Virus record (IMG/VR): IMGVR_UViG_3300024581_002769
Span: 1 to 39,041 of that record
Reading direction: 5' to 3' (one strand)
DNA length: 39,041 nucleotides
From: a virus
A program made the position numbers and the translations under genes. The notes beneath the pieces were generated by a model. It was not told where the DNA came from and ran no database searches. It saw only the letters and a program-made list of their open reading frames with translations. Shown piece after piece: positions 19,422 to 36,289 of the stretch. Each line of letters begins with the position of its first letter. The stretch's first letter is position 1.

Positions 19422-21044
19422 TTATGAATAAACATCGCTATAATTGTCATTGTATATTCTTGGTTGATTTACTTTAAAATTCCAGTCATTTAATCCGTTT
19501 GCTCCATAAATTCCAAATGTGGTTTCTAAAACAAAATTATCATCTACTTCTATTCTGTATTCACCTACACTATAAATCTCACTAGCTTTAACATATAAAA
19601 TATTATCACTTACACCAATAACATCTAAGTATGTCAATGTTTCTAATAAAACGTTATCCTGGTATATTCTTATTTCTAAGCTTGGATCATTATTAAGTTG
19701 AATATCTATGTTGTAAAAAATAGTCAAAGGAAAATCATTATCTACTCCATTAGTAAATATACTTTCATCAGGCGGTTGTAATGTTGTAATAACAGGGCGT
19801 AAATCATCAAATATTGCTTCATCATCAATAAATACATTGCTACCATCATCATTTTTATGAAGTAAATATGTCATAGTTCCATTAATACTATCGTCCGATC
19901 TATCCATATCGCCCTCAGGAGTAAGTTTAATTAAATCTAAATAAAAACCTCCTTGAATATCAGAACCTTGTATATTACCGCTTAAACTTTCAATACTATC
20001 TAAAAATCTTGCGTGACCATCTACTAAAAATTCATATTTAATCGTTTCGTCATCACGACTTTCAATTGCTATCGGTGTATTTCTACTTCCTAAATATTGT
20101 ATTTCTCTTTCAGGATTTATATCTGTTAGCCCTAAATCTTTAGTAGGAACAGTTGTTCTTATCCAATTATATAATGGCTGATAACTCCATTTTATACCTT
20201 TACGATCAAAATAATTACGTGTATGCACAACACTCAAAGGTTCGTCAACGAATTTCACACAATCACTAATTTTACATAAATCAAATGTTTTTTCTATTAT
20301 AGAAAATTCATATAACCATATAAGAGAACCTGAAGACCTAACTGTAATTGCTACTTTTTCATAATTTTTTGTAGGTGTAAATTGAAAAGTTGTTGCAAAA
20401 TCATTAGGGGCTGTAACCGTTCCCGAATTAGATATATCCTCCTCTACTCCTCCACTAAAGAAATCTAAAGTAACCCTGTTTATATTCGTGAAAACCTCAA
20501 AAGAATAACTTATTTCATATGTCTTTCCTGCCTCTAAATTAACAAGTTGTGATGCTCTAGATTGCGTAGCCGTTTCTATATATCCAGTAAAAGAATTAAA
20601 AGCCCCGTATTCAATATTCCAATTATCTATTCCGTTTTCAAATGATGGATTTTTGATTAATTGAATATCATTTTCGCATCTTATTTCTAACCTACCTACT
20701 TTACTTATTCTTTCTAATAAAAAAGTAATATAATATATATTTTCAGCATCTGAATTTATAACACTTGGTATTTCGTAATCTTCATTTTCATTAGTAAAAT
20801 AAAGTCTATTAACTCCGTTGAAATCAATATTTTTATCAATATCATAATTTGTAACAACTAACCTATGTATTCCATCATAAAAACAAGTAGGATCATCATT
20901 TTTTATTTGCAATTTATAAGGGTTTTCAGGATGCCCAAAATATTGATTGTTTTGTGAATTAAAACGATCTTTAAAATGGCTTAAATCATTAACCCACCTT
21001 ATTAATGATAAATCTCTGAATTTATATTTAGATTTAAGACTCAT
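19422..21044 (-). CDS. Baseplate/tail protein with carbohydrate-binding-module-like segment, 540 aa
   Basis: IKNPSFENGIDNWNIEYGAF resembles the first strand of CBM4_9 / galactose-binding-like domains. Position after the Tal-like ORF. Confidence 0.5.
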   Translation of the reverse strand: MSLKSKYKFRDLSLIRWVNDLSHFKDRFNSQNNQYFGHPENPYKLQIKNDDPTCFYDGIHRLVVTNYDIDKNIDFNGVNRLYFTNENEDYEIPSVINSDAENIYYITFLLERISKVGRLEIRCENDIQLIKNPSFENGIDNWNIEYGAFNSFTGYIETATQSRASQLVNLEAGKTYEISYSFEVFTNINRVTLDFFSGGVEEDISNSGTVTAPNDFATTFQFTPTKNYEKVAITVRSSGSLIWLYEFSIIEKTFDLCKISDCVKFVDEPLSVVHTRNYFDRKGIKWSYQPLYNWIRTTVPTKDLGLTDINPEREIQYLGSRNTPIAIESRDDETIKYEFLVDGHARFLDSIESLSGNIQGSDIQGGFYLDLIKLTPEGDMDRSDDSINGTMTYLLHKNDDGSNVFIDDEAIFDDLRPVITTLQPPDESIFTNGVDNDFPLTIFYNIDIQLNNDPSLEIRIYQDNVLLETLTYLDVIGVSDNILYVKASEIYSVGEYRIEVDDNFVLETTFGIYGANGLNDWNFKVNQPRIYNDNYSDVYS

Positions 21045-23451
21045 ATTTTATTAATCCTTTTATAGTTAATGTATTTTCACTTCTTTTATGATTAAATGCT
21101 TCATCACCAAAAGGGAATATGTTTTTTCCTCCATAAGGCGTTGGTACTTTTAAATATCCAAAGCTTGTACTGTCATCGTTATTAAATCCATATCGCCAAT
21201 TGTTGAATATTTCAAAAAATTCAAAGAAATCTACATTATGCATTTTAATTTCTATATAATCACCATTGAACAAAGGAAACAAACCGGAATTTTGTAAATC
21301 TAATTGAGTGAAATTTTGATCTAATGTTATTTCGTTAGGATATTCATTTGGGAAAACCGAAGTATTAACTTTTACAGTTACATCTCCGTTATTCTTGTAA
21401 TCATTTACTATTATTTCAGTATTTAAATCCTTCTTTGTTAATCCAGACCCCCATAATGGATACCATCTAAAACATTGGTATTTTGGATTATGTATAACGT
21501 TCGAACTAGTATTTGAATCACTTACCCCAGTTAATATATCGAATCCCTCGTTAGTTCTATTCTTAATTATATTATTTCTAGTTATTTGTATTGTGTTATC
21601 AGAAACTCCTGTTTGTATCGACGGCTGTGGACCTAAATTAATAGAATTAAATGTTAATGAATTTATAGTGTATACTCCTGTATTTAACCCAGTTAATATA
21701 TTTATACTATCTCCTACTTTAAAATTATCTGTAAAAGATTTTTCATATTGATTTATAATTAGTTCTCCTGATTCATTAACATGTTCTGTATTTGGGAATA
21801 AAGCATTATCTGTATAAGTGTTTAAAAAAACAGTATTTAATAATACAATATCATCATCCTTATCATTGGTGCTATTTGAATTATCATTTATACCTTCATT
21901 TATAAGATATTCATCAGTAGAAGTTTCGCTTTCAATATCTAGTTTTTTCTTTAATGATTTTATAGGAGTTGTTAATTCTGCTTTTGTATTAAAATTAAAT
22001 AAATCTTCATTTTCCTCACTTGAAAACTTCTTGTATCCAGTTAGTAAATTATTGAAATGAATATCATTATATTGTTTTAGTACAAACTCATCCCTCGTGT
22101 AATCCCTATTAGTCAAATCAAAAATTTCAATATCTTTAAAAAAGAAATTTATATCTTCAATTTTTAAAGTTTCTGATCTCAAATCGTATCCTAATGCCAT
22201 TATTTTACTTAATCCTTTTTCAAATAATGATTCAAAATTAGTCTTTAAAGTTTGATTTGATATGTTAGGTCTCAAACCTATAAATGAGTTAATATAGTTT
22301 TCATAATAACGACCGTTTAACGATAAAATATTACTATCTAATAATGTTTTACCATCCGTATATTGTTCACATAATTTGCTTATAGAATTGAATAATAATA
22401 CTGATTTATTTTTCATCGCAAAATCAGGATTATTTAATAATAATTCATATTGAAAGTTACCTGAAACACTAAAGTTTGAATTGTTAGGTATAGCATTATC
22501 GTCCAATAAGCAAAATATTTGTAAAGAATCCCCTTGATTTAAGTTAGGTATAGAATAACTTTTATTTGTTATATCTATAACAGTTTGTTTAAATGTTCCT
22601 AAATCCTCTATTGTAGAAGATTCTAACTCAACCGGAACTCCTAATACTCCATTTATAAGGTATACTAATTTAAAATCATTAGTTAGTAAAGGATTATTTA
22701 CATCTTGCCTATATGATATATTTAAGTTTAGTATTTTTAAACTTAATCCTAAATAATTAGCAGAAGCTCTAAACAAAGGATTATTAAGGTTATCGTAAGC
22801 ATTATCAAACTCTACATTAAATGGAGTTGCTCTTGGTCTAAATCTATCTGATGGAGATACAAAAGTAGCATTTACAACATCTCTTACTGCGTTCCATTCA
22901 TTTTTTAAAGAATCATCTATTTTTTTGAAATAAATATCATCAGTTGATACTGGTGTAATAGAATTATTATCTAAATTAGTATCTGAAAATAAATCTACTG
23001 TAATATCTTTTCGAGTGTTAAATTTATTTTGCTCTTCTCTTTTCTTTATTTTAAACCTTGCGTAGTTATTTTCTATTCCGGATTTAAACTCAACATCATT
23101 TAAATTAAATTGATAATCATCTTCAAGTAATGAAGTTTCTAGTCCATCCTTACCTTTTACAAACCATCTAAATATAATTTGAGAATCACCGCCTAAATCA
23201 TCATAAGTATTTTTTAATAAATAAAATGTATTTGGATCATGATTTTCATATATAGATAATTCAGTTTCCTCTCCAAGTATAAAATTATCAACTCCGTAAA
23301 ATTCATCATTTCTATCTACAATAGTATCTACTTCATCAAATTCACTTGGTTTTTTTATATTGTAAACACCAACAAATGAACCCTCTAAAACTTCAATTTC
23401 AAAGCGTTCACTTGTATTGTCTTCATATGTTAAATTTACAATATTAATTAC
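21034..23451 (-). CDS. Distal-tail / tail-associated (Dit-Tal-like) protein. Open frame of 805 codons with no ATG/GTG/TTG before 22776
   Basis: Hand translation shows the frame stays open from the TGA at 23452-23454 down to the track ORF (TTG start at 22776). The upstream 225 codons read as protein (..NLTYEDNTSERFEIEVLEG..). First gene after TMP and the lipoprotein. Confidence 0.6.
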   Translation of the reverse strand, partial: VINIVNLTYEDNTSERFEIEVLEGSFVGVYNIKKPSEFDEVDTIVDRNDEFYGVDNFILGEETELSIYENHDPNTFYLLKNTYDDLGGDSQIIFRWFVKGKDGLETSLLEDDYQFNLNDVEFKSGIENNYARFKIKKREEQNKFNTRKDITVDLFSDTNLDNNSITPVSTDDIYFKKIDDSLKNEWNAVRDVVNATFVSPSDRFRPRATPFNVEFDNAYDNLNNPLFRASANYLGLSLKILNLNISYRQDVNNPLLTNDFKLVYLINGVLGVPVELESSTIEDLGTFKQTVIDITNKSYSIPNLNQGDSLQIFCLLDDNAIPNNSNFSVSGNFQYELLLNNPDFAMKNKSVLLFNSISKLCEQYTDGKTLLDSNILSLNGRYYENYINSFIGLRPNISNQTLKTNFESLFEKGLSKIMALGYDLRSETLKIEDINFFFKDIEIFDLTNRDYTRDEFVLKQYNDIHFNNLLTGYKKFSSEENEDLFNFNTKAELTTPIKSLKKKLDIESETSTDEYLINEGINDNSNSTNDKDDDIVLLNTVFLNTYTDNALFPNTEHVNESGELIINQYEKSFTDNFKVGDSINILTGLNTGVYTINSLTFNSINLGPQPSIQTGVSDNTIQITRNNIIKNRTNEGFDILTGVSDSNTSSNVIHNPKYQCFRWYPLWGSGLTKKDLNTEIIVNDYKNNGDVTVKVNTSVFPNEYPNEITLDQNFTQLDLQNSGLFPLFNGDYIEIKMHNVDFFEFFEIFNNWRYGFNNDDSTSFGYLKVPTPYGGKNIFPFGDEAFNHKRSENTLTIKGLIKYES

Positions 23452-23603
23452 TCATAATGTACGCTTTTTGCGTTATAATCTTGGCAGTCATAAATATCTA
23501 TTACACCATCTGCATTGTAATCATAGTCACATATAACATCATCATCACTACTATCACATGATGCAAACAAAACTAAACTTAATACTAAAAATATTCTTTT
23601 CAT
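23448..23603 (-). CDS. Small lipoprotein (51 aa) with dockerin/EF-hand-like Ca-binding loop, below the ORF-track threshold
   Basis: Hand translation MKRIFLVLSLVLFASCDSSDDDVICDYDYNADGVIDIYDCQDYNAKSVHYE*. Lipobox LFAS-C, loop DYNADGVIDIYD. Confidence 0.6.
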   Translation of the reverse strand: MKRIFLVLSLVLFASCDSSDDDVICDYDYNADGVIDIYDCQDYNAKSVHYE

Positions 23604-23633: not shown

Positions 23634-26600
23634 TTAATTATATTTAGTGCGAATAGAAAAACTATTTTTTTGATTATGCATTTTTTTAACAGTTTTTGGG
23701 TATTTTCCATTAGATTGAACATATAGATTTTTGCCATCATTGAAATACGTCGGCTGTGTGTTTTTTGACATTGCCCTATCTACAGCGTTATATATTTGTT
23801 CCTCTGTTATAGCATTATCAATATTTATAGTAGGAGCGATTAATCTGTTTAATATCATACTATTTAACAAATTATCGTCTAAAACATCATTATTAATATC
23901 ATTTAGTATACTATCATATTTTTGGCTTGACTTTCGATTTATAATCCATTCGCCCCCTTCCGCTTCTGCTATCTTTGTATTTGTGCCTTTAGCAACAATA
24001 GGAACACCTCCATCTTTATGCAAAGCTCCATTTAAACGACCCCCATCTCCAAACTCAGGTACTGCCTTACTTAATATCAAAGCACTTTGTAGTGCTCCAA
24101 ACGCCAATGCAATACCTGCTGGTGCTATTCCAAAAGGAACACCTAGGCGTGCTATAGTTTGAGTTGCACCTAAAGCACCGTTAATTAATGCTTGCTGTGC
24201 ATCGGCTTTTTGTTGTGCCTTGAATTGTCTTATTTTAGTTTGTTTTTCCTTTTGCTCTTTCTGTGCTTCAAAAACCTCTATTTGAGCCTCTAAAGCCTCC
24301 TTTTCTTCTGCACTTAGGTTTTCAGCTTGTAATTGTCTTTCTATGGCTTCTATTTTTAAATCGGTATCCTCTTGGAATGCCTCGTTTTCTCTTTCTAAAG
24401 ATTCTATGCGATCATCAGCTTGCTTTTCAAACATCTGACTAGCAAATGTACCCACTACTGCAAAGCCTGCTAACAGTTTGTCGGTAAAGCTAGCTTGCTC
24501 GTTTAAAATCGTATCAAATAGATTAGTAAACTGATTTGCTACTGCATCCAATCCTAAATCAGATAAACCCTCTGCGATAATATCTTTGTAGACGTTTAAA
24601 CGTTCAAGTTCTTTTTTCTGATTGTCGCCCTCTATATCTACATTGGGAGTACTTGTGTTTTCAATTCCTGTGTTTAGCGTATCATCTAATCGGTTTTCTA
24701 TCTCTTTTGCCGTTTCTTTGGACTTTTCCAAAACATCTTTTAGAAGCGCTACTCCGTAAAACTCGCTGGCTTCATTAAGTAGTTTATTGATCTTTTCAAG
24801 TTCCTTGCGCTCATCTTGTAAGAGTTTAATCTTTTCTTTTTGCGCATCGTTTGATGACCTGTTAGACGTTTTAGTTTGTTTTCCTGAACTTGTTTTGCTT
24901 GTTTCAGTATTACCGCCTGTTTTTCCACTTGGATTTGGTTTTTCTTCAACCTCTGGCGCTAAAGCAACTAATGCGCCTACAAAATCGCCTTTTGATATGG
25001 CTAGTCTTGAAGCTAGTAATCGGTTTCCAAATTCAATGGTATCATTAAACTGATTCATTGAATCAATAAGAGGGATGTTACCATTCGTTAAATCTCCGTT
25101 TAAATCAATTGTTTTTTTAATAAATCCATTTAATACCTCTATTTTACTCTTAGTATTTTCAATTTCTTTACTGACATCCTTTTGAGAGCGAACCCAACCC
25201 TCTGATGTATCAAAACCTGCTCTTAAAACGTTATCATACGCTTTTACAATAGTTGTAGCATCCTGATACGAAACACCTAATGCTGTAAGTGATCCAACGG
25301 CTTGTTTAAAAGTCTTGTCTCCATCTATAAATAAATCTATTATCTGTTTTTGTTCTTTATTTAGTGTATTTAAAAATTCGCTATTTTCAAACGTTACTTC
25401 TGCTATATTTTTAAGTCTTGTAGCCTGTTCAGAATAAAGCTCGTTTAATTCATCTTCAAATTTCAATAAAGCCAACTTTTGAGCATACTGCTCGTTTACC
25501 TTTTTTAAATTTTCATTTATAGCCTCATAAGACAAATTCTCTTTGTCTAGTCCGTTTAACAAATTAGGGTTTAAGGCGTTTATTTCCTTGATTAATTCAA
25601 TACGCTTATTGTTGTTGTCAAGATTATTTTTAAGTTCTAAGGCTAAATTGTTTAATGATTTTTGTTGTTTTTCTATTGGCTCAACTTTATTCATTTCGGT
25701 GAGCCAATTAAAAGTAAGCGTTTTTAAATCAAAGAAATCCTGTGCTAAAGAGGATAAGGTGACTTCTCCACTTTCAATAGATTTTACAAAATTAGTAAAG
25801 GCGTTTTCACTTCTAGATATTGAAGCATTAAGTGTTTCCACTCTATCTATCGTATCTAAATTATATGCTTTTTCAAGTGCAACAGCAAATTTAGGTAGGG
25901 TATCTTCTGCTAATACTTCTCCCTTTTCTAGCATTTTATTAAGTTCAGATGTGGTAACACCCAGTCCATCTGCAAATATACTAAAGGCACTTGGTATTCT
26001 CTCTCCTAACTGCCCTCTTAATTCTTCCGCCTGAACCGTACCCTTTGACATCATTTGTTCGAGCGCACGTAATGCGCCCTCTGTTTGTTCGGTAGTTAAA
26101 CCCATTACCGCACTCGCCTTAGTAACCGAATCAAATATCTTACGTGCCTTTTCGCCCTCTACCAATGTTCCTTTTACACTAGCTGAAAACGATTTATAAC
26201 TTTTAGTAAGGTTAATCACTTCCAGTCCGTAGTCCTCTGAAATCTTTGTTAAAAATTCTTGTTCTTTGGCTACTTGTTGTTCCGTTTCAAATACAGCCAA
26301 TAACGAATTATTTAAACTATCGAGTTCTCGTGTGGTATCAAATGCACTTTCTCCAATTCTTATAACAGTATCTACAAACCCAACAATTCCTGCCGCCGCT
26401 AAACCTGCACTTGCAACACCTTTTAAAGCACTGCCATAATTACCAACATTTCTTTGAAAATTTCCAATAGGTTTTTGTATTTTATCTACTTCTCCTCTTA
26501 ATCTTTTTACATCAGCTAACAATCTTTGCGTGTTTTTAGAAGCGAAACCCTCTTTTATTGCCATATCTTGGTACGCCTTTGTAACACGTAATAATTCAGC

Positions 26601-26990
26601 TTCTAACTTTTTAAATTCTCTGTTAGCTTCTTGAGTTCTCTTTTTTTGTGTAGCCGTTGATTTAGCTAATTTATTTTGCCTATCAATTGCCCTATCCCTT
26701 TCCCTGTTGTTTGTTGCTTGCGTTCTTGCTAAAACATTTAATGTACGTTGTTCTTGGGTTCTTAATTTCTCAACCTCAAAAAGCTTCTTAGCTAACTTAG
26801 TTTGCAGCTCTACACTTTCTTTTTGTGCTTTATTATAATCGGCTAAATTACCGCTCTTAAATGAACTATTAACATCCTTTGCTTGTTTTTCTACCATTTC
26901 CAAAGAATCCAATAAGCTAAGTACATTCTTTTCTAGTGTACTTATATTTTCAATAGCCTGTTGGGTTTTAATATCTAATTCATTTGCCAT
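23634..26990 (-). CDS. Tail tape measure protein (1118 aa)
   Basis: Size, coiled-coil-rich sequence, Gly/Ala-rich hydrophobic segments, position after the chaperone-like ORFs. Confidence 0.9.
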   Translation of the reverse strand: MANELDIKTQQAIENISTLEKNVLSLLDSLEMVEKQAKDVNSSFKSGNLADYNKAQKESVELQTKLAKKLFEVEKLRTQEQRTLNVLARTQATNNRERDRAIDRQNKLAKSTATQKKRTQEANREFKKLEAELLRVTKAYQDMAIKEGFASKNTQRLLADVKRLRGEVDKIQKPIGNFQRNVGNYGSALKGVASAGLAAAGIVGFVDTVIRIGESAFDTTRELDSLNNSLLAVFETEQQVAKEQEFLTKISEDYGLEVINLTKSYKSFSASVKGTLVEGEKARKIFDSVTKASAVMGLTTEQTEGALRALEQMMSKGTVQAEELRGQLGERIPSAFSIFADGLGVTTSELNKMLEKGEVLAEDTLPKFAVALEKAYNLDTIDRVETLNASISRSENAFTNFVKSIESGEVTLSSLAQDFFDLKTLTFNWLTEMNKVEPIEKQQKSLNNLALELKNNLDNNNKRIELIKEINALNPNLLNGLDKENLSYEAINENLKKVNEQYAQKLALLKFEDELNELYSEQATRLKNIAEVTFENSEFLNTLNKEQKQIIDLFIDGDKTFKQAVGSLTALGVSYQDATTIVKAYDNVLRAGFDTSEGWVRSQKDVSKEIENTKSKIEVLNGFIKKTIDLNGDLTNGNIPLIDSMNQFNDTIEFGNRLLASRLAISKGDFVGALVALAPEVEEKPNPSGKTGGNTETSKTSSGKQTKTSNRSSNDAQKEKIKLLQDERKELEKINKLLNEASEFYGVALLKDVLEKSKETAKEIENRLDDTLNTGIENTSTPNVDIEGDNQKKELERLNVYKDIIAEGLSDLGLDAVANQFTNLFDTILNEQASFTDKLLAGFAVVGTFASQMFEKQADDRIESLERENEAFQEDTDLKIEAIERQLQAENLSAEEKEALEAQIEVFEAQKEQKEKQTKIRQFKAQQKADAQQALINGALGATQTIARLGVPFGIAPAGIALAFGALQSALILSKAVPEFGDGGRLNGALHKDGGVPIVAKGTNTKIAEAEGGEWIINRKSSQKYDSILNDINNDVLDDNLLNSMILNRLIAPTINIDNAITEEQIYNAVDRAMSKNTQPTYFNDGKNLYVQSNGKYPKTVKKMHNQKNSFSIRTKYN

Positions 26991-27696
26991 TTTTACGCCT
27001 TTTTAATTGTTGTTCCTTTATAGCTTTAATCCTTTCAGTTGCTTTTTTTATGTATACTATATACTGAGATAATGTAGTGTTCATGTTAATTTGTATAGCT
27101 GGCTCAAATGCAAGCCCTGTACTAATTATATGTTCGTCTACACTTATACTTTTATTTTCTTTTTTACCGTCTTCTAATAATCCTATATTTTTATTTATTT
27201 TGTTGTCTAATGATTTTATTTTTTTTTCAATTTCTTTTATTTGATCTTCTTTTTTTGCTTTAATAGCTATTCGTTTCGATCTAAAAAAATTATTAAACCT
27301 ATCTTTTACCTCTTTAGATATAAACATTGTCATAGTGGATTGATAAAGTATTAAATATGAAGTTATTATTTTCTTTTCATTATCATACTGCATAACCTTA
27401 CCCATACGGCTTATATTAACCGTGTAATCATCAAATATTTGTTCTTGATAATCTTGTTTAATTTGCAAAAAAATAGCTTCCAAATCAGCATTTACTTTTA
27501 AAACACCTCCTTGATAGCCTTTAATTAAGAAATTATAATTGTTAGTACGTTCTATATTCGAGTATTGCTCTAAAGTAGTATCATGTATGCTCGTACTCCA
27601 GAATATTTGTCCAGTCGCTCCACTCATTGAGTTCTGCAACTTGGTTAGGTGTATAGCCCTGTTCAACTTTCCGTACTTGTAAATCGTTGTTCTCAT
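26980..27696 (-). CDS. Tail-module protein, 238 aa (start uncertain; overlaps the 27581-27799 ORF)
   Basis: ORF with ATG start; 11-nt overlap with the TMP start. Confidence 0.55.
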   Translation of the reverse strand: MRTTIYKYGKLNRAIHLTKLQNSMSGATGQIFWSTSIHDTTLEQYSNIERTNNYNFLIKGYQGGVLKVNADLEAIFLQIKQDYQEQIFDDYTVNISRMGKVMQYDNEKKIITSYLILYQSTMTMFISKEVKDRFNNFFRSKRIAIKAKKEDQIKEIEKKIKSLDNKINKNIGLLEDGKKENKSISVDEHIISTGLAFEPAIQINMNTTLSQYIVYIKKATERIKAIKEQQLKRRKNGK

Positions 27697-27799
27697 TTAC
27701 GTAAAATATTATAAATTCATTTGTTTTTTTTGACCTCTTTTTATAATCGTTTATTCTTGCCCTTATACTTTTTTTAAAACTTTTATTACATTGACACAT
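27581..27799 (-). CDS. Small basic protein, 72 aa
   Basis: ATG overlaps the upstream stop (TAATG). Confidence 0.45.
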   Translation of the reverse strand: MCQCNKSFKKSIRARINDYKKRSKKTNEFIIFYVNENNDLQVRKVEQGYTPNQVAELNEWSDWTNILEYEHT

Positions 27800-32293: not shown

Positions 32294-33136
32294 TTACTGT
32301 TTTAATAAATTTCTTAATAATTCTTTATCTATTGTTAGAGTGTCAATAGACGGCTCTATGGTTGTTTTACCAGTGATTTGCATCGGCTGGTTATTTTTCA
32401 TGTTTTCAAATTGCTCTTTTGAAAGTGCAGGAGTATATGAATTACTGCCGTTTAGAACGGTTGAGCCTTCTTGACTAATTGCTTGTTCGTAAATAGCGAA
32501 GTAATATCCTTGCTCCTCCACTTGTTCCTTGTTTAATATTTTATCTATATGCTTGTCGTATATCGCTTTCTCTTCTTTATCATCAACATGGTCGCTGTTT
32601 AAAGCTAATTTTACATTTATATACCTTAGTCTTATGCTGTGTTCTGTAATTCCTTCTTTGTAAGCTAATAAAGCCTTTTCGTTAGTCATTTGGCTTATTT
32701 TAGATTCAAACACTAATAATTCAGTATTTAAATCACTTTCATAACCTAATGATTTGAAATTAGAATTTAATAAATGTAGGTTAACGTCTTTAGCTGGTGC
32801 TACAGTTGTCATTATACCTAAACTATGATCTATAGCATGAGTAACTTTACCTTGTTGTTCTGATACTGTTTTTTTCCAAGAGCCATCTAAACTAACATCA
32901 TCGTGTGAATCCATTACATTAGTAGAGTTCATCACAGCATATATATAGCTTCCTATTGTATAATCTTGTTCAGCACTCTTTATAGCGCCTGATTTATTAA
33001 TTATTCTTAATTCAAATTTTTTATTTTTAGGCTGTTCTTTCTTTTCAGCTATTAAACGATCTTTATTAGCCTTAAGGTCTTTAAACATTTCTGCCTTATC
33101 TTTAAAATTCTTATTTAGTGCTTTACAATAAATCAT
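32294..33136 (-). CDS. Prohead protease (HK97 / S78-U35 type)
   Basis: STNVMDSHDDVSLDGSW....THAIDHS resembles the S78 D-x-H-G-D...G-W...H-D pattern. Position between portal and capsid. Confidence 0.65.
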   Translation of the reverse strand: MIYCKALNKNFKDKAEMFKDLKANKDRLIAEKKEQPKNKKFELRIINKSGAIKSAEQDYTIGSYIYAVMNSTNVMDSHDDVSLDGSWKKTVSEQQGKVTHAIDHSLGIMTTVAPAKDVNLHLLNSNFKSLGYESDLNTELLVFESKISQMTNEKALLAYKEGITEHSIRLRYINVKLALNSDHVDDKEEKAIYDKHIDKILNKEQVEEQGYYFAIYEQAISQEGSTVLNGSNSYTPALSKEQFENMKNNQPMQITGKTTIEPSIDTLTIDKELLRNLLKQ

Positions 33137-33255
33137 TTTAATACATCTTTATTAAACTTCTTTTTCTTAATAGAATTTGATAATTTTTCTTTATCAATAT
33201 TTTTACTATTAACTTTTTTTATTTTCTCCTCTATTTCACTTCTTAATGTTTTCAT
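33133..33255 (-). CDS. Small basic protein (40 aa), translationally coupled on both sides
   Basis: Hand translation MKTLRSEIEEKIKKVNSKNIDKEKLSNSIKKKKFNKDVLK*. ATGA overlaps with the portal stop and the protease start. Confidence 0.5.
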   Translation of the reverse strand: MKTLRSEIEEKIKKVNSKNIDKEKLSNSIKKKKFNKDVLK

Positions 33256-34592
33256 AATAAACTTTCTAAGCCGTTTTCTTTTAAATATCTATTTATATTT
33301 AAGTTAATGCCTTGCGATATTGCCTTCTCGTTTGCATCTAATATGTTTTTAAGTGCATCCGTTTCAAACTTTATACCTTCCTGCCTATCTTTCTCTTTTC
33401 CTTTTATAACTGACGGCAAATGATCAAAACTAGCTATTAATTTAGTGCCTCTAGTTTTGAAATACTCAGGACTTTTTAAAGTCAATGCTAAACATAAATT
33501 GTCTATAATAGGCTGACATATATTAGCTACAAATCTAGCTTCTGCAACACTTTGGTTTTCATAAGTACTACCTTGTGTTTTACCACTTCTAGCATCTAAT
33601 ATATCTGGGGGAATGCCATACGCTGTACGTGTGTTTTGTTTAGCGTTGTTTTGCATTTCTATTAAAGAAGTTATGATCTTTGGCGTATCCGTGTATATAG
33701 ATAAAAACTTTAAATCTTCATTTGTAGTGATTATATGACCTTTGGTCCCTAAGCTTGCTCCGTAATCATCTTTACCGTTGATTTTCTTTTCTTGCATCGC
33801 TTTTTGAACAGCGTCTAATTGTTCTCCTATATTAACTCCAGAAGGATTGTTTTTTGATAAAATCCCACCAACTGGACGTGTTGAAAAGTAAGCTAATGCA
33901 TCCTGTGTACTTTTGATTATTTGAAGATCGTATTTTAAAGCATCTACACGGCTAATTGGAGTTAAAAATGCATCCCTGTTGAAGTATGGGTACATTGTAT
34001 TGTTTTCATGATACAAACCTCTTTTTATAGTATCATACGTTATAATTAAATCTTTATAAGGTATATCTATTGTTTGATTATCTAAATGTAATTTAAATAT
34101 AAGGTTTTTTATACTAAAGTCTGGCTGTGAAAAGAAATTTGAATCAATTTTAGGGTAATAAAGATTGAAGTTATCTAACACGTATAATTCCCTATCTGTT
34201 TTTTTTAGGTTTCCATTTTTAAAGAAATTACCCCAAATTACTGCTGAACCATTTACTAACTCATTTATAGCAAACTCTTTTACAAATCCTTTTTTATCAG
34301 TCCATTTGTTAGGTTTTTCTAATAAATCTACATAATCCGAGTTTTCAATTTCGTTTCCTTCACTGTCTACTTCTTTAAATTCTACAGTAGAAAGCGTATC
34401 TACTATTGTATTTATTACAGATTGAAAAAAAACTATGTCTTGGTAGTATTTTTTATAATTTTTGTATGGCTTGTAATATTCAATTTCTGAGCCATGAAGT
34501 ACATTCATTAAATCAGAGAATGAGCCAGTGTGAAAAGTGTTATAGTGTTGCCCTATTTCATTAATATAATAAGGAACACTATTTTCTTGCAA
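33252..34592 (-). CDS. Portal protein (446 aa from TTG 34592; frame stays open to 34646, possible ATT start at 34640)
   Basis: Size and position before protease-capsid. No in-frame ATG at the 5' end. Upstream in-frame codons read ISFLNKLFGKKETEKH. Confidence 0.7.
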   Translation of the reverse strand: MQENSVPYYINEIGQHYNTFHTGSFSDLMNVLHGSEIEYYKPYKNYKKYYQDIVFFQSVINTIVDTLSTVEFKEVDSEGNEIENSDYVDLLEKPNKWTDKKGFVKEFAINELVNGSAVIWGNFFKNGNLKKTDRELYVLDNFNLYYPKIDSNFFSQPDFSIKNLIFKLHLDNQTIDIPYKDLIITYDTIKRGLYHENNTMYPYFNRDAFLTPISRVDALKYDLQIIKSTQDALAYFSTRPVGGILSKNNPSGVNIGEQLDAVQKAMQEKKINGKDDYGASLGTKGHIITTNEDLKFLSIYTDTPKIITSLIEMQNNAKQNTRTAYGIPPDILDARSGKTQGSTYENQSVAEARFVANICQPIIDNLCLALTLKSPEYFKTRGTKLIASFDHLPSVIKGKEKDRQEGIKFETDALKNILDANEKAISQGINLNINRYLKENGLESLL

Positions 34593-34677
34593 GTGCTTTT
34601 CGGTTTCTTTTTTACCGAATAATTTATTTAAAAAGCTAATCTCTACTCATGCGACCGTATATGTCTTAAGTATTTAT

Positions 34678-34721
34678 TTACAAATATACAAATAATTTTT
34701 GAAATTAAAATAAGTTCATAA
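34678..34721 (-). promoter_or_regulatory. Class-B promoter block B1 (TATATTTG -7 box at 34681-34688)
   Basis: 44-bp block about 90 percent identical to 35161-35204. Upstream of the portal. Confidence 0.55.
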
Positions 34722-36112: not shown

Positions 36113-36289
36113 TTATTCAATATCAATATCAAATAAATGATCTTCAATATCATTAAGTAAACAAGAACCATCGCATAACGTTCCGTCATAATATATCTCT
36201 TCACTTAAAATTCCTATTTCATCTTTATCTTTTAATTTATTTAAGTATTTTAAACTAGCTTTTAATAATTCTATTGATCTCTCATTCAT
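36113..36289 (-). CDS. Small acidic protein (58 aa), below the ORF-track threshold
   Basis: Hand translation MNERSIELLKASLKYLNKLKDKDEIGILSEEIYYDGTLCDGSCLLNDIEDHLFDIDIE*. Downstream of cassette A6. Confidence 0.5.
   Translation of the reverse strand: MNERSIELLKASLKYLNKLKDKDEIGILSEEIYYDGTLCDGSCLLNDIEDHLFDIDIE

Follow-up and report, generated by a model that had tools for sequence, protein, structure and literature searches.

How does a ribosome begin on a gene whose reading frame offers no canonical start codon where the protein begins? The question is raised by two structural genes, one for a tail-tip protein and one for the portal protein, in the virus genome IMGVR_UViG_3300024581_002769 (IMG/VR record, positions 1 to 39,041; this whole stretch of 39,041 nucleotides is called the window below). 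The window is a phage genome of 27% GC with all genes on the minus strand, and its late genes are ordered terminase, portal, major capsid protein, tape measure and tail genes. At the head of each of the two genes, a mini-ORF (a very short open reading frame) starts with ATG and stops at an ATT, and this ATT lies in the long frame and aligns with the initiator methionine of homologous proteins. On comparative sequence evidence, the best explanation is initiation at AUU or AUA that would be fed by termination-reinitiation from the mini-ORF, giving a low output of two low-copy virion proteins. The probability of this reading is put at about one half. A first-pass annotation made from the letters of the window had already singled out both junctions, and every statement it made about their bases was confirmed.

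Reading frame and product of the tail gene

The tail gene, delimited by its open frame and its homologs, occupies 21034..23448 on the minus strand and has 804 codons when counted from the ATT (23446..23448, minus), which is proposed as its initiation codon. The minus strand from 23460 to 23441 reads ACATT ATG AGT AAT TAA TAT. The mini-ORF ATG AGT AAT TAA is found at 23444..23455 (minus), and its ATG overlaps the TGA bounding the long frame, in the form ATGA. The long frame, (TGA) GTA ATT AAT ATT GTA, stays open for 805 codons, from 23451 down to the stop at 21034. Two stops overlap the ATT by one base each: the TAA of the mini-ORF at base 23446 and, at base 23448, the TAA (23450-23448) of a preceding ORF for a 51-residue lipoprotein (23448..23603, minus), an overlap written as TAATT. 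Along this frame, the first ATG, GTG or TTG is a TTG at codon 225 (22774..22776, minus), which was taken by the automatic gene call, and the first ATG is codon 345. The earlier statement that the frame stays open to 23451, through 225 codons free of ATG, GTG and TTG, was confirmed by a survey of the reading frames. With off-frame stops at 0.125 per codon, a run of 225 open codons would arise by chance with a probability of about 8e-14. The lack of ATG, GTG and TTG over the same length has a probability of about 0.003 under the codon usage of the genome.

The upstream codons were compared with homologs from a large protein collection. Homologs of 806-830 amino acids cover 100% of the 805-residue translation. 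The full-length identity is 62-65% to P0002 and P0004 and 44-45% to P0005-7, and for the N-terminal 234 residues the values are 64% and 41-47%, respectively. The region upstream of the TTG is thus conserved at the protein level, and synonymous changes are found in it. In an AlphaFold (AF2) model built from 20 homologs, the mean pLDDT (predicted local distance difference test) is 84; a confident domain spans residues 12-190, and disorder is confined to residues 1-11. A start at TTG 22776 would therefore lose 225 conserved, folded residues. Judged by full-length homologs, protein-level conservation and the predicted fold, the codons upstream of TTG 22776 are real protein, as had been supposed when they were first translated, and the TTG is not the real start.

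The whole tail model has its best PDB match in the lambda tail-tip complex 8xcg, with an E value of 1e-6 and a low TM-score. The next matches are TNF-like jelly-roll domains, which are typical of phage receptor-binding proteins. Searched by itself, the N-terminal domain matches Hcp, the baseplate of mycobacteriophage Douge and the T5 tail tip only weakly (E 0.02-0.06). The Pfam search of the tail protein gave no match, and the protein matches PHROG 15220, which is described as 'virion structural protein'. The gene comes directly after the tape measure gene (23634-26990), with only the lipoprotein ORF between them. The product can safely be called a tail-tip protein at the Dit/Tal position; its identity as 'Dit' or 'Tal' is not established.

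Reading frame of the portal gene

The portal gene (PF04860) lies at 33252..34640 on the minus strand and has 462 codons from its ATT. The match to Pfam Phage_portal scores 50.1 bits against a gathering cut-off of 39.1 (E 2.9e-13). The minus-strand junction at 34650-34636 reads CGC ATG AGT AGA GAT TAG C, and the long frame is (TGA) GTA GAG ATT AGC TTT TTA AAT AAA. The mini-ORF ATG AGT AGA GAT TAG (34636..34650, minus) has four sense codons, and its ATG again overlaps the bounding TGA. The proposed initiation codon is the in-frame ATT at 34638..34640 (minus), which overlaps the TAG by one base and falls in the methionine column of the homologs. The first canonical codon is a TTG at codon 18 (34590..34592, minus), and it is not conserved. 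The segment SFLNKLFGKKETEKH would be untranslated if the start were TTG 34592. An open stretch of 18 codons is not significant in itself (P about 0.09), so the portal case rests on the comparison with homologs.

Translational setting of the window

All minus-strand frames of the window were surveyed for the distance between the upstream in-frame stop and the first start codon, and the tail and portal genes are the only outliers. Nearly all other genes have an ATG 0-11 codons after the stop. In the few others, an ATG or TTG is reached within 21 codons; these are the TTG-called ORFs 35086, 15539, 4132 and 3191, and the ATG 4745 at codon 21. Upstream of the gene starts in the window, the sequence is A-rich and carries no Shine-Dalgarno (SD) motif, and the base after the ATG is A in 68% of the starts. 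ATG AGT opens eight other genes and is a common Met-Ser start context here. Stop and start codons overlap as ATGA nine times and as TAATG three times, and the gap is at most 3 nucleotides at 30 of 55 junctions. The lipoprotein/tail junction, GAG TAATT AAT, departs from TAATG only in the last base. The overlap of the ATT with this stop had been pointed out before, and it stands for the window; it is specific to the window, however, since in relatives the lipoprotein ORF ends earlier or is decayed.

Boxes of the type TAnnTTTG, the -7 promoter consensus of Bacteroidota, precede the portal and other genes. For the portal, the matching sequence is TATATTTG (34681..34688, minus), about 30 nucleotides upstream of the mini-ORF, and the same box precedes the portal in the close relative L005, in the uvMED phage and in all of the outgroup portals introduced below. 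Relatives of the portal are found in genomes of Chryseobacterium, Elizabethkingia and Flavobacteriaceae. A Flavobacteriia-type host is indicated because the starts are SD-less and A-rich, the TAnnTTTG boxes are present and such genomes carry the portal relatives. The host is probably a marine member of Flavobacteriia. Ribosomes of this type ignore SD sequences, and AUG triplets near starts are counter-selected in Bacteroidetes (PMC6847099). Since such AUGs are counter-selected, a conserved out-of-frame AUG 7-10 nucleotides upstream of the start of the main ORF is very unlikely to be neutral.

The initiation contexts were also compared by a position-weight score. No candidate start was favoured by it, and both junctions are atypical. 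The AUG of the tail mini-ORF is at the 15th percentile of true starts, and the downstream TTG 22776 has a poor initiation context.

The same junctions in related phages

The close clade consists of the window, the fosmid-derived uvMED AP013358 (L001 for the tail, L004 for the portal), the Logan/ENA contigs L002 and L007, which contain the tail junction, and the ENA contig L005, which contains the portal junction. Seven junctions were therefore compared, namely the tail junction in the window, uvMED, L002 and L007 and the portal junction in the window, uvMED and L005. The arrangement of a mini-ORF with an ATT or ATA is present in all four of the other contigs.

In the tail alignment, the ATT of the window and that of uvMED stand in the column of the initiator methionine of the homologs L003, L011 and P0038. 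The uvMED junction reads ATT ATG ATA GAT TAA TAT, with the mini-ORF ATG ATA GAT TAA, and its long frame is TGA TAG ATT AAT ATT TTA AAT TTA ACA TAC. There the ATT is the first codon after two stops (TGA TAG), and no canonical codon follows for 23 codons, up to the TTG that is annotated as the start. L002 and L007 both read ATG ATT GAT TAA AAA, with the long frame TGA TTG ATT AAA. In the portal alignment, ISFLNKL of the window is matched with MGLLTKL or MSILTKL of the homologs, and the isoleucine encoded by ATT is in the methionine column; the portal-like character first seen in this N-terminus is borne out. The uvMED portal reads CGGTCGT ATG ATT AAT AAG TAA, with the long frame TGA TTA ATA AGT AAT TTT TTT AAA AAG, and its first canonical codon is a GTG 30 codons downstream. 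The L005 portal reads CGGTCTT ATG AAG TAT AGA TAA, with the long frame TGA AGT ATA GAT AAA, and has no canonical codon for 172 codons. As in the window, the long start offsets of uvMED are limited to the tail and portal genes, besides one ORF of 81 codons with an ATG at codon 16.

The elements that are kept can be read from these alignments. ATGA is invariant in 7/7 junctions, and the four bases on either side of it vary. The heptamer ATGAGTA, which had been proposed as a feature shared by the two genes, did not survive the comparison; only its ATGA is invariant, and the relatives have ATGATAG, ATGATTG, ATGATTA and ATGAAGT. The mini-ORF has three sense codons at every tail junction and four at every portal junction, with most of the internal bases differing. 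ATTAA is invariant in the tail alignment of four contigs. The in-frame codon at the mini-ORF stop is ATT in all four tail junctions; among the portals it is ATT once and ATA twice (uvMED and L005). Conservation at the protein level begins at this codon. The codons between the TGA and the ATT or ATA vary, being GTA, TAG or TTG in the tail gene and GTA GAG, TTA or AGT in the portal gene.

The downstream canonical codons behave in the opposite way to the residues around them. The equivalent of the window TTG 34592 is CTA in uvMED and TTT in L005, and the equivalent of the uvMED portal GTG is ATA in the window and L005, whereas the portal residues KH.QEN.VPYY.NE.GQHY upstream of TTG 34592 are conserved. 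The earlier view that the downstream TTGs are not real starts is upheld for both genes. The conservation of the junctions is not explained by an overlapping gene, because the region is non-coding for other genes at 3/4 tail junctions and at all portal junctions.

A tblastn search of INPHARED with both proteins found no relatives. Scans of IMG/VR and JGI with the proteins, the major capsid protein alignment and DNA patterns gave nothing, or only distant or chance matches. The search with the major capsid protein added one close contig, which is too short to include the junctions.

Conserved blocks upstream of the mini-ORFs

A conserved block, TTATAACGCAAAAAGCGTA (TTATAACGCAWAAAGCGTA), lies at 23460..23478 (minus), 5-7 nucleotides upstream of the ATG of the tail mini-ORF, and contains the palindrome or hairpin ACGC-N5-GCGT. 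The block is nearly invariant in the four contigs with the tail junction, although its flanks are barely alignable, and it is kept in uvMED despite the decay of the lipoprotein ORF. The ACGC-N5-GCGT is the only one in the window, where 0.05 are expected. At the portal junction, a G+C-rich leader block, AGACATATACGGTC, with GAC-N7-GTC, is located at 34653..34666 (minus), 2 nucleotides upstream of the mini-ORF ATG. Three contigs share the block as AGACAWMWACGGTC, and it gives this ATG a context unlike the other gene starts of the window. RNA folding of the seven junctions gave no shared structure beyond stems of 3-4 base pairs, ACGC/GCGU and GAC/GUC, and these stems show no covariation among the seven junctions that could be tested. 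The blocks could be small hairpins, protein-binding sites or ribosome-tethering elements.

Start codons in the wider family

Twelve more distant portals served as an outgroup: L012 (L012:8952), the prophages and metagenome-assembled genomes (MAGs) L041-L047 (near 1815-2001), and L049-L052 (position 301). The set covers prophages of Chryseobacterium, Elizabethkingia and Flavobacteriaceae together with contigs from metagenomes. These portals start at or next to a G-[LIF]-L-T-K motif, five with TTG, five with GTG and two with ATG, and each start is 20-30 nucleotides after a TAnnTTTG box. For comparison, the remaining ORFs of 100 codons or more in L012, L041-L047, L003 and L011 start with ATG in 51 cases and with a non-ATG codon in one. 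Portals across the family thus prefer weak starts. The pattern suggests that the choice of start codon is a dosage device for the portal and other low-copy virion proteins.

Most of the outgroup portals use their TTG or GTG without any mini-ORF. In L052, whose portal has 38% identity, the segment 290-303 contains the mini-ORF ATG TAT AAT TAG, and its stop overlaps the GTG start by one base. By its sequence, L052 provides a separate case in which a mini-ORF lies directly against a weak start of a portal gene.

The more distant tail genes (L003, L011 and L012) start with a plain ATG. In L003 (9990-10003) and L011 (1488-1503), the ATG of the tail-tip gene is only 6-7 nucleotides after a TAnnTTTG box. 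This spacing suggests a near-leaderless transcript, which would be another solution than that of the clade with mini-ORFs.

Proposed initiation at the ATT or ATA and its alternatives

Any explanation has to account for upstream codons that are coding, for the lack of canonical starts, and for the ATT at the N-termini of the homologs, the conservation of the junctions and the weak portal starts of the family. In termination-reinitiation, the events would be as follows. In an SD-less host, a ribosome would be recruited mainly by an accessible AUG. Ribosomes would load on the conserved AUG of the mini-ORF, translate its three or four codons and terminate on the stop that overlaps the AUU or AUA, or lies 2 nucleotides past it. 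A small fraction of the terminated ribosomes may then reinitiate at the AUU or AUA. The output would be low by design, and this would suit a particle that takes about 12 portal subunits and a few tail-tip subunits. AUU initiation or termination-reinitiation had been suggested in the first-pass annotation, and this part of it is supported: the in-frame ATT is the best start candidate and termination-reinitiation the best-fitting route. ATT aligns with methionine, and the arrangement recurs in uvMED, L002, L007 and L005.

The geometry agrees in part with what was first described. The restart codon overlaps the mini-ORF stop by one base, as ATTAA or ATTAG, in five of the seven junctions; in the uvMED and L005 portals, however, an ATA ends 2 nucleotides before the TAA. 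The restart codon, ATT or ATA, has no canonical alternative in 5/7 junctions. A TTG is available in L002 and L007, and a GTG in the outgroup L052.

Several points weigh against reinitiation at AUU or AUA. IF3 discriminates against AUU and AUA, which initiate poorly. AUA takes the place of AUU in two portals, and the distance between restart and stop is not constant across the seven junctions. In L002 and L007, AUU is not obligatory, since the codon that precedes the ATT in the long frame is a TTG. The AUG of the portal mini-ORF, in its G+C-rich context, scores below every other start of the window. Finally, the junctions amount to about two independent origins, because they come from only five related contigs.

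The main rival is a programmed +1 frameshift at the stop of the mini-ORF. Translation would begin at the AUG, read three or four codons, pause at the UAA or UAG with a very short nascent chain and skip one base, and the N-termini would be MSN-NIVNLTYED for the tail protein and MSRD-SFLNKLF for the portal protein. This route has the merit of a single rule for ATT and ATA, since in 7/7 junctions the long frame is +1 to an AUG mini-ORF that ends in a stop. Moreover, ATG AGT resembles an ordinary gene start of this phage, and the tail gene of L012 begins with ATG AGC GTA ATT, of which ATG A GTA ATT in the window looks like a version shorter by 2 nucleotides. A precedent exists in the same bacterial order: in Flavobacterium prfB, a +1 frameshift at a stop reaches about 7% without the help of an SD sequence (PMC10798248). 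As in prfB (RF2), a short 0-frame ORF ends at a stop, the main frame is +1 and the host lineage is the same. Unlike prfB, the phage junctions have no slippery codon of the CUU-U type, no conserved shift heptamer and no SD-like element. None of the codons before the stop (AAT, GAT four times, AAG and AGA) could re-pair in +1, and the contexts AAT TAA T, GAT TAA T, GAT TAA A, GAT TAG C, AAG TAA T and AGA TAA A reveal a site that is not conserved among the portals. No GGAGG-like or SD-like stimulator is present in the junction alignments, and the conserved G+C-rich blocks are unrelated in sequence. A frameshift also leaves unexplained why ATT or ATA is kept at every junction and why conservation and the homolog N-termini start there. 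In L052, the mini-ORF is in another frame relation and ends on a canonical GTG, which fits coupling instead. We consider a frameshift unlikely on this balance.

The +1 shift placed right after the AUG (AUG-A-GUA), which was offered earlier as an alternative, cannot operate in uvMED, because the codon that follows there in the +1 frame is TAG. Other recoding routes were rejected on similar grounds. Reading TGA as sense would not help, since the tail frame has a TAA seven codons upstream of the TGA and in uvMED a TAG follows it. A tRNA hop from AAT to the next AAT can be drawn for the tail junction of the window, but uvMED and L002 have no matching landing codon. Against transcriptional slippage, the mini-ORFs contain no homopolymer run, and the T-runs come after the mini-ORF stops. 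A leaderless portal mRNA was rejected because the promoter-like box lies about 30 nucleotides upstream of the mini-ORF ATG.

In a further alternative, AUU or AUA would be used directly and without coupling. The mini-ORF would then act as an upstream ORF that competes or inhibits, or as a sensor for regulation, and would not supply ribosomes. The alignment of ATT with methionine and the weak portal starts of the family apply to it equally, and most outgroup portals with TTG or GTG manage without a mini-ORF. Initiation at AUU and AUA has also been observed in vitro; it depends on the context and takes place in a good one (PMC5499595). However, the ATT contexts in the window score no better than the AUG contexts. 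Without an SD sequence, an AUG 7-10 nucleotides upstream would out-compete the AUU within the same ribosome footprint. In addition, the mini-ORF is found exactly in the clade that has lost a canonical start, and its stop always abuts the ATT or ATA. Uncoupled initiation is rather improbable in this light.

A start at the downstream TTG 22776 or TTG 34592, with the upstream frames untranslated, was what the gene callers chose (or its equivalent) in the window, uvMED and L005, but the 225 open codons, the conserved folded domain, the unconserved start codons and their poor contexts make it very improbable, and for the tail gene it is effectively refuted. Errors of sequencing or assembly, or a recent inactivating mutation by which an ordinary ATG was displaced, could produce each junction by a change of ATG to ATT or by an indel of 1-2 nucleotides after the ATG, but this is hardly credible as the same architecture is found in five independently sequenced contigs with diverged flanks; paired sequencing errors, judged less likely from the start, are ruled out by the five independent assemblies that carry the arrangement.

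Comparison with known systems

The nearest known case to reinitiation at AUU is infC of E. coli, which encodes IF3. At the thrS-infC junction UAA GGU AUU, about half of the initiation is reinitiation (PMC3592434). As proposed for the phage genes, infC is an essential gene with an AUU start a few nucleotides from an upstream stop, partly dependent on reinitiation and of low output (PMC3592434). In contrast to the phage, infC has an SD sequence and a long upstream gene, and its AUU serves the autoregulation of IF3. The phage junctions have no SD sequence, their mini-ORF has three or four codons with an AUG that overlaps the bounding stop, the genes are structural, and AUA is found in relatives.

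Termination-reinitiation at overlapping or abutting stop and start codons (ATGA, TAATG) has been described for both archaea and bacteria (Huber et al. 2019, PMC6728339). Junctions of this kind are found all through the phage genome, and at the tail and portal junctions the stop and restart codons likewise overlap or abut. The differences are the non-canonical restart, the overlap in the form ATTAA or ATTAG, and a mini-ORF that has no plausible protein function.

A third comparison is with minimal upstream ORFs and minigenes, such as the lambda bar minigene AUG AUA UAA, start-stop elements and TURBS-type reinitiation in viruses. They have in common with the phage junctions a very short AUG ORF in the leader and a conserved cis-element just upstream, and the uvMED tail mini-ORF begins with AUG AUA as lambda bar does. 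Elements of these kinds regulate, or are toxic through peptidyl-tRNA drop-off. None of them is known to give ribosomes access to a main ORF that is itself without a canonical start codon.

Non-AUG starts, reinitiation and +1 frameshifting are each already known. What is new is the combination in which an AUG mini-ORF that looks obligatory is joined to an AUU or AUA start of essential structural genes in a host type without SD. Tentatively, and with somewhat more doubt than belief, we propose that the junctions represent a dedicated translation module of SD-less Bacteroidota phages. In such a module, a cis-element and an AUG mini-ORF would hand ribosomes to AUU or AUA and set the stoichiometry of low-copy virion proteins, and the TTG and GTG starts of other portals would be a milder form. 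It would be a bacterial counterpart of viral TURBS-type reinitiation. How Bacteroidota choose start sites without SD pairing is still being worked out, and the junctions offer a natural conserved case.

The junctions also affect annotation. Gene calling gives the tail protein of the window 580 residues against 804, the L005 portal 278 residues, and the two uvMED proteins in GenBank 787 and 434 residues. As gene callers shorten these genes, marine Flavobacteriia-type phages have their structural genes systematically misannotated at both loci.

Neighbouring genes and other features

The 51-residue lipoprotein upstream of the tail gene has the lipobox LFASC followed by acidic motifs of a calcium-binding type, similar to DxNxDGxID. 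L002, L007 and L003 also carry its ORF, which has decayed in uvMED. A weak PHROG match to an Rz-like spanin was obtained (E 0.007). That it might be a superinfection-exclusion lipoprotein like Llp of T5 is a guess.

Upstream of the tape measure gene, two minus-strand ORFs of 72 residues (27799-27581) and 238 residues (27696-26980, in the +1 frame) overlap by 116 nucleotides, and uvMED has the same overlapping pair with 76 and 215 residues. The arrangement of the pair at 26980-27799 is such that it may be a tail assembly chaperone frameshift pair.

Directly after the portal gene, and overlapping its stop, lies an ORF of 34-41 residues (33133-33255, minus). This tiny ORF is present in every relative examined (uvMED, L003, L005, L012 and L049-L052).

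Several small minus-strand genes, with starts at 2086, 7296, 9076 and 14001, open with the identical ATGAAAATAATTAA. The motif TGTAATTAATAA recurs upstream of several genes, near 36289, 14001, 10876, 7009 and 1687. Their repetition suggests paralogous small genes for the ATGAAAATAATTAA starts and a repeated regulatory element for TGTAATTAATAA.

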